Positions 1 to 56,188 of a DNA stretch of 64,000 nt are shown here, in pieces (within the stretch, counting starts at the first letter, position 1; every line of letters starts with the position of its first letter). The notes beneath the pieces were generated by a model, which did no database searches, was not told where the DNA came from, and saw only the letters and a list, made by a program, of their open reading frames with translations. Source of the DNA: Bdellovibrionales bacterium (GTDB taxonomy: Bacteria > Bdellovibrionota > Bdellovibrionia > Bdellovibrionales > JAGQZY01). The translations under genes were made by a program, and so were the position numbers. The DNA lies in contig JANPLN010000059.1 of the NCBI GenBank assembly GCA_031426555.1, positions 1-64,000 of the forward strand, in the 5' to 3' direction.

Positions 1-306
1 CTCTCGAAAACAAGCTCAAAAGCCTCGGACAGTCCTCGCCCCTTCGGGTCTGCGGAACTCGTTTTTGAACTTGTTTTCGAGAGTACTTTTTCTAATGAAC
101 TTCTCAAGCTGGATAAAAGCTGGACACTAATTAGTACTTAAGAAAAAACGATTTAATGTCTGCCAATTAAAGGCTAGCGCTGGTTAAAAAGGAATGGCTT
201 ATTCTTTAATAGAAGGTTTTTGCGGATTTCTCGGAGTTATTTCCGAGAACTACTAGGTCTTGAAGTCTGCCCTTAAGACTGGTCAGCAGCCAGCTCACCA
301 GTGGTT
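1..306. repeat. Structured dispersed element, copy 1 (left end may be cut by window edge): long hairpin plus conserved stem-loop body
   Basis: Arms 1-23 and 61-83 are inverted repeats (21/23 Watson-Crick). Colinear similarity blocks with 26456-26894 extend to CAGTGGTT (299-306). Confidence 0.75.
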
Positions 307-673
307 ACTGAAGTACTGGTTTTGAGATTAAACAGCTGCTATTCGTTTGTTTAACTGTTGTCTTGTAGGTGTACTGCTTAAATTCTTCAAACCCATCTCC
401 GTTTGAGCCATAATATGTAGCCTCAAATACAGCTTCATAAGCACCGTAGGCGAGAGCAATGTTTGTTGTGTGCACTATTTTGGGGTGATTAACTTCAAAA
501 GACAGCCTGAAATCCTCTAAAAAAGAAAGAAGGGTCTCGGATTTAGCAAGATGGTTACAGAGTTCCGTATTAGAAATCTCTATTCTATCGGTGTATTCGA
601 AAATACCTGCTGAAGCAGCCGTTACAAAAGGTAGGGATAATACGATAAACATCGCTTTTGTTATTGTTTTCAT
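305..673 (-). CDS. Secreted hypothetical protein
   Basis: 122-aa ORF with Sec-type signal peptide (..VTAASA); no family recognised. Confidence 0.7.
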   Translation of the reverse strand: MKTITKAMFIVLSLPFVTAASAGIFEYTDRIEISNTELCNHLAKSETLLSFLEDFRLSFEVNHPKIVHTTNIALAYGAYEAVFEATYYGSNGDGFEEFKQYTYKTTVKQTNSSCLISKPVLQ

Positions 674-928
674 TTAACAGCCTTTAGTTAGAGTTCGTAT
701 TTAGATTCCAGTTACAATTCGATCGATGATCTAGTCAATGGCCCAAACGTTTATTGAAATTATTATTCATTTACGAATATGAGGGTTGTTTACAAATTTA
801 CTGTTTGCGAAGTGCCCAATGCAGAGCTGAAGATAACGAGTGACCAGACTCACCCTGAAATAATCCCAGAGCGGCAGACCTCGCCCGTCTATGGAATATG
901 TGCCATTCTTTAATAGAATCAAAGCCGA

Positions 929-1015
929 TCAAAGTGTCGCGGACACCTTGGAGCGGATTTTTATGCAGCGGTCGTCTTCTTGGGGGGAGATTTTTAAGTT
1001 TTTGAGGACGGTTTC
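929..1015 (-). repeat. Displaced, recoded duplicate of the pepN 3' end (direct repeat of 2429-2515)
   Basis: 87 bp with 11 mismatches. Translates ETVLKNLKISPQEDDRCIKIRSKVSATL* versus pepN ETVLKNLKISAQEDDRCIKIRSKVSATL*. Confidence 0.92.
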
Positions 1016-1047
1016 TTGCGGGCGGGTAAGTAGCTTTCCCGATAACA

Positions 1048-1070
1048 ACAGCCTCTTGCAATGAGGCTGT
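1048..1070 (-). terminator. Hairpin downstream of the lipoprotein gene, probable intrinsic terminator
   Basis: ACAGCCTC-N7-GAGGCTGT perfect 8-bp stem; weak U-tract. Confidence 0.5.
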
Positions 1071-1099
1071 CTGTGAATGATGAATTGATTACGAGGAAA

Positions 1100-2320
1100 T
1101 TAAATCCCTGTGGTGAGCATTTCGTCCATGGAAGTCCAAGTGATAGACGGAGCCGTTGTAAAGCTCTGCCACGTAGGTGTCACTAGAGTTGATGCTGTGT
1201 TAAAGGTAGCGGAAGGGCCCGAAACACCTGTTGTGTATGGAATATCTCGACCGCCGGTGCCGCCAGTGCCTGTACATGCAAATGCGTTGCTGGCAGCCGC
1301 TTGGTCTGCAGATGATCCATCAGTCTTCAGCACGCACGCCTCGAAGTTTCCGTCGGCAGCTCCGCCGTTCCAACCATTTAGGTACATTGAAACTGACAGA
1401 GAAGGAAAGGTAGAGCCTACGTTGCCATCAACGATATAGTGAATGCTGTAGTCGGCAGATGTATCAACCGCACTTGAAAATATACTGTCGGTCACGGTGT
1501 AAACGCGTGCTGCGCCAGTAACATCGTCTTTCCACAAGCGGTGAATGACCATGGAGTAGCCGTTCTCTTTACTTTTAAATAAGTACTCTACTTTTAGCAG
1601 ACGGGAGGAAGTGTCATAGACAACCACAGTGCGCGAGCGAGTTGTCGTGTTGTCTTCTGCTGAGGCATAAGCCACAATACCATCAGAAGATCCCCACTTA
1701 AAATACATCGTTTCAATAGTGCCTTCGATATCGATAGTGGCTTTAAGATCAAAAGTTGTCGATGGGGATGCTGCTTCGAAAGTTAAAGTCGCAGAAGCTG
1801 GGAAGTCTGCCAAGTCGGCAGCTTGAAATCCGCACGCGGTGGTTAAGGTCGCCTTTAAAGAGGCTGTAAACGTAATTGTGGCGGGCCCTGTTCCAACAAG
1901 TGATGCAGATGTGGGTGCAGATAATGAATTGGCTACGATGCATGGAATGGCCTGACCACTTTCCATACGACCAAATACGTTGATGGGGGAACCGTCTGGG
2001 CGATAGGCACCATCCTGAAATTCAATACCCATCCAATCTTTAATCGAAATGGGAGGGTTCCCAACATAGCGTTGATCCGAAAGACCAATGTTGGTGGGCC
2101 AGTGCGTGCTAAATCCAACGCCTCGTGCGCCGAGATCTGCGCTGTAAAACGGAACCGGAGTCACCGGGGCCGGGGCAAGACTTGCAATACCCGCAAGTGA
2201 GGTTTGTGCTCTCGAAAATCCAGCGCCGGCAACCGTGCTAGAATTTTCGACATTGCTACTGGAGCAAGAGATTTGAGCTAAACTCAATGCCGTTAAACTC
2301 AATGCCAAATATTTTTTCAT
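1100..2320 (-). CDS. Ser/Thr-rich hypothetical lipoprotein
   Basis: MKKYLALSLTALSLAQISC lipobox-like start with GGAAGG RBS; 406 aa from this start. Confidence 0.75.
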   Translation of the reverse strand: MKKYLALSLTALSLAQISCSSSNVENSSTVAGAGFSRAQTSLAGIASLAPAPVTPVPFYSADLGARGVGFSTHWPTNIGLSDQRYVGNPPISIKDWMGIEFQDGAYRPDGSPINVFGRMESGQAIPCIVANSLSAPTSASLVGTGPATITFTASLKATLTTACGFQAADLADFPASATLTFEAASPSTTFDLKATIDIEGTIETMYFKWGSSDGIVAYASAEDNTTTRSRTVVVYDTSSRLLKVEYLFKSKENGYSMVIHRLWKDDVTGAARVYTVTDSIFSSAVDTSADYSIHYIVDGNVGSTFPSLSVSMYLNGWNGGAADGNFEACVLKTDGSSADQAAASNAFACTGTGGTGGRDIPYTTGVSGPSATFNTASTLVTPTWQSFTTAPSITWTSMDEMLTTGI

Positions 2321-2428
2321 GATAATCCTTCCATTCAAGTTTTTAATACTACGTATACATTACTAAAATAGTGGAAGGTGATCGAACAAGTTTAGGTTTT
2401 TAAGTCCATGGTCGAGTCCTGAATTTAA

Positions 2429-5077
2429 CTACAACGTGGCTGATACCTTTGAGCGGATTTTTATGCAGCGGTCGTCTTCTTGGGCGGAGATTTTTAGGTT
2501 TTTGAGGACGGTTTCTGGCAGCGTTTGGTTTTTTTGCGCAAAGTTTTGCAGCTTTGCTTGGGTTTCAGGATTGCAGAAGGCGGGGGCTAAGCTGACGAAG
2601 GTGGATAAAAATTCAGGAGGCTGCTTTTTGAAGGCTTGGAGTTGGGAGTAAAAGCGATCTTGGAATTTTTGGTGAAGCTCTTCTTGATGGATGGGAAACA
2701 GATTCCACATAATCGGTTTTAGTTTTCCCAACGACATTTCGGGGCGTGGGCCTTGAATGATGGAGGACCATCTGTTTTCCTTCACATCAGAGGTTGGTTG
2801 GGCTGCCAACGCGGCTTCGTAGTTGTTTTCGCCGCGCTGAGAAGGATCTTTTTTCTTTTCTTGCTCGAGGCGTTTTTGAATATCTTTGACGCCGTAGGAG
2901 CTTAAGTACTGCAAAATCTGCCAGCGGCGGTCTTGATCGATGGAAAATTTAAGCCAGGTTGGTTTTTTATCTAACATGTTTTGTGCGATGGAGAGCTCGG
3001 TGGGCGAACTTAAATTATCTAAATAAAAATCGAACCAACGCTTTTGCTCGTCAACGGTTTTAGACGACTTTGTGCGCTCTAGCAAAAATGCCACCCACTG
3101 GGGGTGTAGTTTGGCGTAGGCAGCTTTGCCTTTTTCGTCCGTGGGAAGATAGCGCTCGAGAACAGTGGTAACTCTTGCGGTCACTGCGGTAAGCACTTCG
3201 ATGTCGCTTTCCTTCGCTAAATGTTTAATAGCGATTTCAAAATATTTGGTAGCCACCATTTGTTGATCGCGGACCATTTCCCACAGAGTTCCCCACAGAC
3301 TGATTCTAGTTAACTCGTCGGAAATTTTTCCAAGAGAGGCTTCAACGGCTTTGATGGAAGCCGCATCAAGATTTAATTTTACGTAATCAAAATCGTCTTG
3401 GTTTGCAAAAACCAAGGTGTTATCAGTGCACGTTGTACCATTGAGTACGGACACGGAGGTGGATTCACCTTGATACGTTACATCCACTGTTTTGGCAGTT
3501 TTAAAACCAGAGTTCGTGGGGTTTAAAACAGAAACGCGGGTTTTGTGAGCGCGCAGGGTTGGGAACTGCGGCACCGCCGTTTGTCTGATTTGGAAGTCGA
3601 CAATCTTACCGTTTTGGCATTGATAGACCACTTGCGCGGTATTCACTTGAGGGATGGTGAGCCACATTTTTTGCCACTCTGTAAGATCGATGTTTGAGGC
3701 GGCGCTCATCTCGTTCATAAAGTCGGGCAGCGTGGTATTTTTGTAGGCGTTTTTGTTAAAATAATTTTTCAGACCCATTTTGAAATTGTCGGAGCCGATG
3801 TAAAAATCCAACTGTTTTAGTACCGAAGCGCCTTTGCCGTAGGTGATTCCGTCAAAGTTAGCAAAGACCACATCGGTATTTGCAACGGTGAATTCGATGG
3901 GGTGAGTGGTAATAGATTGATCGGCAAAATAGGCACTGCGCTTGGCCGACGCATAAAAATCTGTCCACGCCTCTTTAAATTGTGTGGCAGACACGAGCCC
4001 CTTAAACGCGGCGAAGGTGGCGAAGCTTTCGTTAAGCCAAATGTCATTCCACCACTTCATTGTCACCAAATTGCCAAACCACATGTGGGCCATTTCGTGC
4101 AAAATGATGTTGGCTAGCATGCGTTTTTCAGCGCGTTCTTTTTGCGTGCGCGAAACCGCGCGCTCGTTAAACGTCACAGCGCCGACATTTTCCATGGCTC
4201 CAGAGTTAAAATCAGGAACAATGAGTTGATCGTATTTTTTGTAAGCGTAGGGATGACCAAAGTAGTCCTCAAAGAACGCGAAGCCGTTGCGGGTGGTTAA
4301 AAACCATTCTTCGGGATTCACATATTTGGCCAGGGATTGGCGAACCATCAAGCGGAGTGGAATGGTTTGGCTTTTAGTTTTTGCGGTATTTTTCCAAATT
4401 TTGTAATCGCCCGCATGGAGTGAGAAGATGTACGTGCTAAAAATTCCCGACTCAGGAAACGACCACTCAGTCGAAGTCGCGGATTTTTGCACAGCGCTTT
4501 CCAGCGTAGAACTCACCACCACCCAGTTTTTGGGAGCTGTGACTTTGGATTGATAAGTCGCTTTAAGATCGGGCTGATCAAAGCAAGGGAACATAAGGTG
4601 GGCATCGTAGGGTTCAAAATCAGAGTACAGGTAAACTTTTTTATCCACAGGATCTACAAAACGATAAAGCCCGCTGCCCGAGGTGCTGTAGGGGTGGGTG
4701 AATTGAATTTCGATGGAGTTATTGCCAGCGACGAGATGCTGTTGGGGAATGGTGATGAAAAATGTATTGTAAGCCACGGGGATTGCCGAGTTGTTCACTT
4801 TTATGCCGGTAACGCTTCCATTATAAAAATCTATGGTGAGCTCTTTGGGTTGGGCTAGCTGAAAAGCTATGTTTGATATTCCAGAAAATGAAGTTTCGTT
4901 GGTGAGGTCGAAGGCGAGGTTGTATTTGACGCCACTGATCAGGGAGGAGCGGTACTCCGCATAGCTTTGCTCAAGATATCTTTGCGCAACTCGTGCTGGG
5001 TTTTTTGCAGTCGTCGCGGACGTGGCGCAATTGGTAATCAGTAATAATAAAAACAGAGCGTTAAATAGTTTGGTCAT
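2429..5077 (-). CDS. pepN: Aminopeptidase N (M1 family), lipoprotein-type signal
   Basis: GAMEN exopeptidase motif, HEMAH-x18-E zinc motif, YGKG, ERAP1-like C-terminus; N-terminal LLLITNC. Confidence 0.95.
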   Translation of the reverse strand: MTKLFNALFLLLLITNCATSATTAKNPARVAQRYLEQSYAEYRSSLISGVKYNLAFDLTNETSFSGISNIAFQLAQPKELTIDFYNGSVTGIKVNNSAIPVAYNTFFITIPQQHLVAGNNSIEIQFTHPYSTSGSGLYRFVDPVDKKVYLYSDFEPYDAHLMFPCFDQPDLKATYQSKVTAPKNWVVVSSTLESAVQKSATSTEWSFPESGIFSTYIFSLHAGDYKIWKNTAKTKSQTIPLRLMVRQSLAKYVNPEEWFLTTRNGFAFFEDYFGHPYAYKKYDQLIVPDFNSGAMENVGAVTFNERAVSRTQKERAEKRMLANIILHEMAHMWFGNLVTMKWWNDIWLNESFATFAAFKGLVSATQFKEAWTDFYASAKRSAYFADQSITTHPIEFTVANTDVVFANFDGITYGKGASVLKQLDFYIGSDNFKMGLKNYFNKNAYKNTTLPDFMNEMSAASNIDLTEWQKMWLTIPQVNTAQVVYQCQNGKIVDFQIRQTAVPQFPTLRAHKTRVSVLNPTNSGFKTAKTVDVTYQGESTSVSVLNGTTCTDNTLVFANQDDFDYVKLNLDAASIKAVEASLGKISDELTRISLWGTLWEMVRDQQMVATKYFEIAIKHLAKESDIEVLTAVTARVTTVLERYLPTDEKGKAAYAKLHPQWVAFLLERTKSSKTVDEQKRWFDFYLDNLSSPTELSIAQNMLDKKPTWLKFSIDQDRRWQILQYLSSYGVKDIQKRLEQEKKKDPSQRGENNYEAALAAQPTSDVKENRWSSIIQGPRPEMSLGKLKPIMWNLFPIHQEELHQKFQDRFYSQLQAFKKQPPEFLSTFVSLAPAFCNPETQAKLQNFAQKNQTLPETVLKNLKISAQEDDRCIKIRSKVSATL

Positions 5078-9048: not shown

Positions 9049-9124
<76 letters not shown>

Positions 9125-26455: not shown

Positions 26456-26894
26456 TTTTTTTACTTTCTTAAATATTTCGTCTCAGAATTTAGAACGTCT
26501 ACTTTGTGAACGCGGACTCGTGTCCTCGCTCGTTTCGCCTTCGGCGATCGCGTCACGCTAACGAGAGGTTCCCAAAGCAGACGTTCTAAATTCTGAGACG
26601 AAATATTTAAGAAAGTAAAAAAAGAATATACGCTTACCTGGCCTGAAATAAAAAGCTCGATGAGGCGGATTTTTTCCAAACACATGTAGCCAACGAAAGA
26701 GTTTTGAAAAATAATCTCCCGAATTGACGCGACCATTCGGTCGCAGCGACAGTAAACTTTGCTCTTTGCCTCACGAAAGAATGGGTTATTCTTTCGTATA
26801 GGATTTAGTGCGGAGTTCTCGGGGCTATTTCCGAGAATTTCTGGTTAAAAGTCTGTGCAATCTAAACTGCAAGTCGGCAACTAGAGCAGTGGTT
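26456..26894. repeat. Structured dispersed element, copy 2: 45-bp perfect inverted repeat plus conserved stem-loop body
   Basis: 26456-26500 is the exact reverse complement of 26579-26623; downstream blocks are colinear with 109-306. Confidence 0.85.
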
Positions 26895-26901
26895 TATTCA
26901 C

Positions 26902-27417
26902 TCAAACTTGTCGAGCCAGTTGCTGGTACGAAGTTTTTTGAAGCGACCCTTCAGAAATATCAAATTTATTCATCAGTTCGCGCACTTTAAGCTCTTCTAT
27001 TTCACGTTGGGCATCCGTGTCCTGATCATAAACAGCCTCAAACTCAAAAAACTGCCCCACTCCATCGACGTCGTCTAAATGAACCCTCACATTTTCGATA
27101 AGGTATATTTCACGATTCTTCTTAACAACTAAATTAACGCCCATTATTTGCGAAAAAAGATTTTTAATATGTTCCGTATTATCGACTTTTAAACGTCCAT
27201 AGTCGCTCTTCTTTGGGCCTTCTTGATTGGGTCGAACGTACGGGATGAGGTATGAACCGTTCAGCGAAGATTCTCGAAGCTTGAAACGTCCATTTGGGAC
27301 GTTGAAGTAAGTATCAATTTGTCTGTCGATTCCAATAAACTTCGCATTAAGGCGGCGACAAACTTCACGAGCTTTTTCTAAATTGGGATAGATGGCTTTA
27401 ATTTCAATGTTTGGCAT
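26902..27417 (-). CDS. CYTH-domain protein (class IV adenylate cyclase-like)
   Basis: NIEIKA, QIDTYF, KLRE, HLDDV.G.GQFFEFEA. Confidence 0.88.
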   Translation of the reverse strand: MPNIEIKAIYPNLEKAREVCRRLNAKFIGIDRQIDTYFNVPNGRFKLRESSLNGSYLIPYVRPNQEGPKKSDYGRLKVDNTEHIKNLFSQIMGVNLVVKKNREIYLIENVRVHLDDVDGVGQFFEFEAVYDQDTDAQREIEELKVRELMNKFDISEGSLQKTSYQQLARQV

Positions 27418-27620
27418 CTGAGTAACATCAGAGAAACCGCAACAAATGTAAAGACGCGGACTAAAAAATAAGGTTTGCGGCGCAGAAAGTGCCCGCAAAA
27501 GCTCTAAAGACCTAGCCAGTCTACAAAAGAATCCCCCAACCCAAGACCTCGCCCCTCTACTCAACAAGTACCATTTAACCGGCTCTTCGACTGCTGCTTC
27601 GGTATTTAAACTATAAAATA

Positions 27621-56112: not shown

Positions 56113-56188
56113 AGGGAATTAGCTCAGTTGGTAGAGCGCCACCCTTACAAGGTGGATGTCATCGGTTCGAGCCCGGTATTCCCTACCA
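56113..56188 (+). tRNA. tRNA-Val(TAC)
   Basis: 76-nt cloverleaf; anticodon arm CCACC-CTTACAA-GGTGG; GGTTCGA; CCA end. Confidence 0.97.

Follow-up and report, generated by a model that had tools for sequence, protein, structure and literature searches.

The window, the whole 64,000-nt stretch of DNA analysed here, forms the start of contig C59 of a 3.14-Mb assembly (G000) with 46% GC, and carries two single-gene units of the same layout. In the first, a left end (L; 189-306, plus strand) consists of an outer half-site (189-194), the core TGGCTT (195-200) and an inner arm which runs to the stop codon of the cargo gene and holds a TTATTTC box about 49 nt inward. The cargo gene (305-673, minus strand) encodes a 122-aa protein with a hydrophobic N-terminus, for which no Pfam family and no Atlas match of 0.9 or above was found (the best, at 0.85, is a lead at most). 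On the gene's far side lies the right end (R; 789-914, plus strand) with its inner arm, a GAAATAA box, the core GTGCCA (900-905) and an outer half-site (906-911). From core to core the unit spans 195-905, and its GC content is 39.8% against 46% in the genome. In the second unit (26782-27573 from core to core), L (26776-26894, plus strand; core TGGGTT at 26782-26787) and R (27461-27579, plus strand; core GTACCA at 27568-27573) enclose a minus-strand gene (26902-27417, start set from homologs) for a CYTH-domain protein, of which a resident second copy with 68% identity is found on contig C24 of the same genome. Elsewhere in the window there are tRNA genes at 9052-9124 (minus strand) and 56113-56185 (plus strand).

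Each end combines a palindromic half-site/core/half-site with an inner arm of about 120 nt, in which a box stands at a fixed distance, TT(A/C)TTTC lying about 49-50 nt from the core in both L and R. The cores are near-invariant, the L core being mostly TGG(C/G)TT and the R core GTGCCA in 30-31 of 31 copies per position, and 6-7 outer bases are conserved as well. R, a diverged inverted homolog of L of about 120 nt located upstream of the cargo gene, was discovered as a second conserved end when orthologous loci were compared. The partner ends at 789-914 and 27461-27579 were absent from the preliminary description, which had seen only the L side. We are highly confident that L is the left end of a cassette of the form L–gene–R.

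The preliminary description took 1-306 and 26456-26894 to be colinearly homologous throughout and the element to be 300-440 nt long. Homology was confirmed only between 186-306 and 26773-26894 (78% identity over 82 nt by blastn, E 5e-9; a score reached by 0 of 1000 dinucleotide shuffles), and the remainder is unrelated. The first two of the paired blocks (within 84-185 and 26619-26772) are no more alike than shuffled sequence, as 792 and 530 of 1000 shuffles reach their scores, and each of the long hairpins at 1-83 and 26456-26618 is a member of a repeat family of its own (467 of 1000), so that the shared part measures about 120 nt. When the full intervals were aligned as two sequences in MAFFT, their left parts came out misaligned. 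Other observations made at the time stand: both copies run to the stop codon of a minus-strand gene or to within 8 bp of it (305-673 and 26902-), and no reading frame is conserved, at most 7 of 31 copies being stop-free in any of the six frames. As no open frame is common to the copies, a decayed protein-coding gene was ruled out. A genome search by iterated nhmmer revealed 11 full copies in this genome, and the view of a multi-copy, undescribed part of a non-autonomous mobile element holds, L being the end of a two-ended gene cassette.

Several repeats adjoin the cassettes and lie outside them. Positions 1-83 form a REP-like long hairpin of a separate multi-copy family, 26456-26618 a long hairpin of a second, unrelated one which is present at the same locus in relatives that have no cassette there, and a third multi-copy long-hairpin family is found at about 71850-72000 of contig C57, where the repeat cuts off an R end. 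Adjoining L of the second copy, 26700-26760 is a fragment of a conserved module that stands about 260-280 nt upstream of eight DUF222-HNH genes of this genome (on C68, C66, C8, C24, C40, C2, C15 and C34); fragments of the module also occur near five L/R sites. An element at about 57100-58250 of C8 and at L023 (contig C59 of G003) shares the same insertion point beside this leader module. From its translation we take it to be IS3-like, and remnants of its end lie to the left of L on C49 (24330) and C64 (84480). Near its HNH locus, C8 also carries a 10,891-aa ORF (23290-55960).

A structured non-coding RNA or an ssDNA-folding element had been proposed for the repeat on account of base changes thought to preserve the pairing of two small stems. 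These changes turned out to be one-sided and of the G-U type only, and among the 11 copies neither stem stood out, as 162 of 500 shuffles reached the observed pairing and 104 of 500 the observed covariation. In the larger copy set, stem 1 gave no signal (3273 of 5000 permutations reach it), and stem 2 gave a weak pairing excess (139 of 5000) which is uncorrected for relatedness. RNAalifold returned four pairs with zero two-sided changes for the plus strand of the 11 copies and no pairs for the minus strand of 35 copies. In Rfam, neither window copy had a match at the gathering score, and those below it (E up to 10) were weak and at chance level. The stem 2 excess, two local palindromes within L and the fold energy of copy 2 (z -2.8) speak for folding; copy 1 reaches a z of only -1.0. 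Complementarity between L and R of one cassette did not exceed that between L and R of different cassettes (permutation p 0.81-0.97), so that long-range L-R pairing was rejected for RNA and ssDNA alike, which fits protein-binding DNA sites and not a stem. With neither a consensus fold nor covariation, L-R complementarity or an Rfam family, the reading of L as a structured RNA or ssDNA hairpin element is largely refuted, and we regard it as extremely unlikely. A sigma-54 promoter at the R core was dropped as a candidate, since the -12 element of the consensus is missing as judged by eye, and a sigma-70 promoter scan of 150-1100 and a terminator scan gave chance-level counts.

Cassettes of this type recur in other genomes of the genus. 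A sequence-only model of L found 3-19 copies in each of five other genus genomes, and in a sample of the order (151 genomes) it gave only six weak single matches in six further genomes. The six genus genomes together hold 60 L matches and 42 L–R units. A convergent ORF lies to the right of L in 50 of the 60, with its stop codon within -15 to +30 of the end in 29 of those, and R was found in the same arrangement at 41 of the 49 matches with at least 1370 nt to their right, four duplicate or partial L matches being left out of this count. In the genome studied here, 10 of the 11 L ends are paired with R, at about ten scattered places. The flanks consist of what we take from translations to be chromosomal genes, such as those for tRNA synthetases and Fe-S cluster proteins.

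Thirty-six of the 42 units contain a single minus-strand gene running from R to L, while two have two genes, two have one plus-strand ORF and two have none. Only one homologous pair was seen among 47 neighbouring proteins (a few of which are host genes beyond a degraded unit and not cargo), and of the 46 that were scanned, 38 match no Pfam family. Pfam likewise identified no transposase among the 46 cargos; wider collections were pattern-scanned only. The ten cassettes of this genome have 36-42% GC, and by a crude test an N-terminal hydrophobic stretch is present in 36 of 47 cargos versus 1188 of 2621 genome ORFs. Two cassettes (C49, 24370-25817; C64, 84515-85178) have inner arms that are 86% and 81% alike around unrelated genes, which hints that genes might be captured between existing arms. 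Overall, the correlation between L and R subfamilies is weak (Mantel r 0.17, p 0.02). A mirror junction with an inverted partial L arm outside the core occurs on C65 (37434-37594, L007).

G000, G001 and G003 carry different cargo at their orthologous loci, and the boundary of the difference lies at the cores. Across eight orthologous pairs, the five bins outside the L core are 81-90% identical, versus 40-47% in unrelated copies. Inside L, from +20 onward, identity is 66/71/46/45/46%, as compared with 63/68/50/47/46% for unrelated copies, and the R side mirrors this drop in six pairs. These eight (L) and six (R) locus pairs come from three related genomes and are not independent. Inside the cores, identity thus falls to the level of unrelated copies, and at the level of sequence this shows the unit from core to core to have been replaced in place. 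Over the first 20 nt inside L, orthologous loci still share 84% identity as against 71% in unrelated copies, so that the position of the crossover is not resolved to a single base. Cassettes also move between loci, as one of them is found at two different loci in G001 and G003 with 95% identity over 787 nt.

A simple insertion model is less easily reconciled with these loci. No target duplication was detected in 31 copies at cut offsets of -6 to +7, except for a +1 overlap that stems from the palindromic core. A comparison of four loci of this genome with their relatives gave no clean empty site, and no circular form of a cassette was seen. At the locus of the second window cassette, five relatives have neither L nor R. 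The cassette-free alleles of this locus and of the C31 locus contain no cores, and 50-75 additional flanking bases differ, which counts against simple insertion.

A pattern scan for R yielded 35 loci, mostly in Bdellovibrionota; the records concerned belong to Bdellovibrionales, Pseudobdellovibrionaceae, Bdellovibrio and Oligoflexia, with a few isolated pattern matches besides. A looser R pattern gave about one chance or coding match per genome in 301 genomes of the order and, being too unspecific, was used for the core position only. Beyond the genus, copies of the outer 60 nt of R stand as direct repeats that separate single genes and toxin-antitoxin (TA) pairs (L113, L120, L133, L136), and L was not detectable in these R-only arrays. 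The array in L113 ends at a recombinase, whereas the cassettes of the genus are dispersed. Viral contigs gave one unrelated pattern match and no relative of the recombinase described below. Contigs from three sequencing runs contained no joints and only another cassette of this genome, and were counted neither for nor against.

At three of the R-pattern loci there is also a whole or partial tyrosine recombinase, and the intact protein is P0001 at L108. It has the catalytic R, K, HxxR, H and Y residues and is closest to XerD and XerA, with which it aligns over about 220-240 residues, as compared with about 60 for IntI4. The integron integrase model TIGR02249 scores 49.5 bits against P0001 (cut-off 265), over residues 281-343 only. 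Relatives were fetched by protein alone in order to avoid circularity, and 78 proteins match at E 1e-60 or better. Of 13 distinct loci with a close homolog (about 65% identity or more), three have a full R at 63-71 nt downstream of the stop codon and two more have a core or model match downstream (shuffle rate at most 0.15%); upstream, 4 of 11 have a short site whose core is TGGCCA. Between this short site and the recombinase stands a small gene pair that we take to be BrnT/BrnA-like and that has no NCBIfam match. By the patterns used, 8 of the 13 close loci have no site downstream and 7 of the 11 none upstream. Distant homologs (34-41% identity) have a full R at 0 of 27 loci and the upstream site at 0 of 3 and 1 of 24. 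These counts show that the sites are co-located with one clade of Xer-like tyrosine recombinases and almost never with its distant homologs.

The order at L108 is R–recombinase–TA–L–gene–R, two module types alternating there and, in part, at L177 and L180. L178 holds a natural junction of an R arm and an L arm, the left site of an L/R pair which, read in reverse (about 800-4050), spans three genes, one presumably for threonyl-tRNA synthetase, and is followed by the recombinase. By protein or profile search, no close homolog of P0001 was found in G000, G001, G003 and G004, the genomes with most of the cassettes. G005 has only a 38% relative, and many of the close homologs are broken. In the genomes of family f21 (L219-L242), a 34-41% relative is present in 72 of 100, mostly once, and may be the housekeeping Xer of this lineage and the origin of the cassette enzyme.

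We consider it probable that cassettes are exchanged in place by site-specific recombination at the two 6-bp cores, through a P0001-type Xer-like recombinase; the enzyme and the mechanism are what we infer from the arrangements above. Since the L and R cores differ, L should pair only with L and R only with R, and exchange would take two successive site-specific crossovers, L x L and R x R. Recombination at one site would join the incoming molecule into a cointegrate, and recombination at the other would resolve it, leaving the gene exchanged. A passing short-armed module, often with a toxin-antitoxin pair and alternating with the long-armed cassettes, would supply the recombinase in trans, and in genomes with no recombinase of their own, such as the one studied here, swapping would occur only during a visit of this module. 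Direct repeats of R with no detectable L call for a different route (R x R), by which R-only arrays would move as gene-plus-R circles, much as in integrons. A two-step cointegrate route has been proposed for the replacement of single dif modules, and gene-plus-site circles have been described for integrons (PMC13141974 and PMC8618304, respectively).

The same cassettes could be exchanged by the host XerC/XerD or another resident tyrosine recombinase, with P0001 as a passenger, since the recombinase-bearing module could be mere cargo. This genome encodes two Xer-sized recombinases of about 300 aa (on C2 and C8) and no P0001 relative, and a 6-bp core between palindromic half-sites would suit such an enzyme. 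XerC/D are general among bacteria, yet the sites are limited to scattered Bdellovibrionota lineages, and the genes standing 63-71 nt from R are those of the P0001 clade and not distant relatives. Moreover, the XerD arm consensus (from which a lineage-specific host arm may differ) is absent from the cassette arms, and its only exact copy lies on C47. This absence also separates the cassettes from dif modules, the dif site of this genome not being confidently placed. We therefore judge an exchange by resident Xer enzymes to be unlikely.

A DUF222-HNH endonuclease might instead cut at or near the sites, the cassette being copied in by break repair using the homology of the arms. The DUF222-HNH genes (Pfam PF02720 and PF01844), which we take to be REP13E12 repeat genes, number eight in this genome and often adjoin cassette ends: they start 250-490 nt outside L or R in G003 (C4, C83), G001 (C185), G004 (C12), G000 (C2), L133 and L139. 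At 5 of about 12 places, their leader motif, which adjoins copy 2, is close to L/R sites. Most HNH genes nevertheless have neither L nor R, and most cassettes have no HNH gene; in this genome at least 7 of the 8 have no L upstream, and R is found at only one. The arms of one cassette share only about 45-75% identity with those of another, a poor basis for homology-driven repair, and replacement takes in the entire arm as far as the core. Where an HNH gene stands between two sites (L133, G001 C185), it can equally be read as a passenger. Copying by break repair is hence quite improbable, and the DUF222-HNH gene is a neighbour or a passenger, not the element itself. That L might be the leader of a DUF222-HNH element was dropped when the L model had no match upstream of the HNH genes of this genome and R was found. 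A DDE transposase acting on a MITE-like non-autonomous transposon with TG...CA termini and passenger genes is very improbable. MITEs and passenger-carrying non-autonomous IS have inverted ends, dispersed copies and no enzyme of their own, as do these cassettes, whose ends are diverged inverted homologs that begin with TGG and end with CCA and one of which occurs at two loci. In contrast to such elements, the cassettes have left and right ends that differ, show no target duplication (the +1 core overlap aside), reuse the same chromosomal site for different cassettes and have a tyrosine recombinase beside their sites, and zero transposases were counted among the 46 cargos.

In its working the system resembles integrons and dif modules, but it qualifies as neither. 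The four window ends contain no pair of attC terminal boxes on a single strand. The recombinase is not an IntI, a folded hairpin is not conserved at the sites, and in the genus there are two different ends with single cassettes at 3-19 sites per genome. Replacement takes place in situ, whereas cassettes of integrons stack at one attI (PMC8618304). Integrons and CALINs, as described in that paper, have in common with the present cassettes highly diverse and mostly unknown ORFs that occur singly, in a fixed orientation and with the stop codon near the site, TA cassettes, arrays beside a tyrosine recombinase in some lineages, and sites in genomes with no integrase.

Acinetobacter dif modules are bounded by pdif (XerC/XerD) sites (PMC13141974). 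As in the cassettes, a gene or TA pair is enclosed by two sites in inverse orientation, each with a 6-bp spacer, and single modules replace each other with left spacers alike and right spacers alike, in keeping with the two-step cointegrate model given there. The modules are of two alternating kinds, an arrangement seen here at L108 and in part at L177 and L180. The inner arms of the cassettes measure about 120 nt, in contrast to pdif sites of 28 bp in Acinetobacter, and the cassettes are dispersed among housekeeping genes, whereas that source places the modules on Rep_3/OrfX plasmids. A dedicated recombinase clade on one module type is a further difference. No description of this system was found in the literature searched, which lay mostly outside the subscription journals, where one may exist.

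We tentatively propose, as a plausible reading still short of a probable one, that these cassettes are a third class of bacterial gene cassettes beside integrons and dif modules. In such a class, a mobile Xer-like recombinase would carry out natural recombinase-mediated cassette exchange at 10-20 landing pads dispersed over the chromosome, each with two cores that do not match, so that a large pool of secreted and surface proteins would circulate among predatory bacteria, and the arms would capture new genes. As the cassette genes have a low GC content, are mostly unknown and often have products with predicted export, the ends can be used as tags in the search for adaptive genes. A recombinase that naturally performs two-site exchange would be a candidate tool for in-place gene replacement, and newly closed cassettes with near-identical arms may make the creation of gene cassettes testable outside integrons. 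If true, the system would represent an undescribed engine of accessory-gene turnover in Bdellovibrionota.
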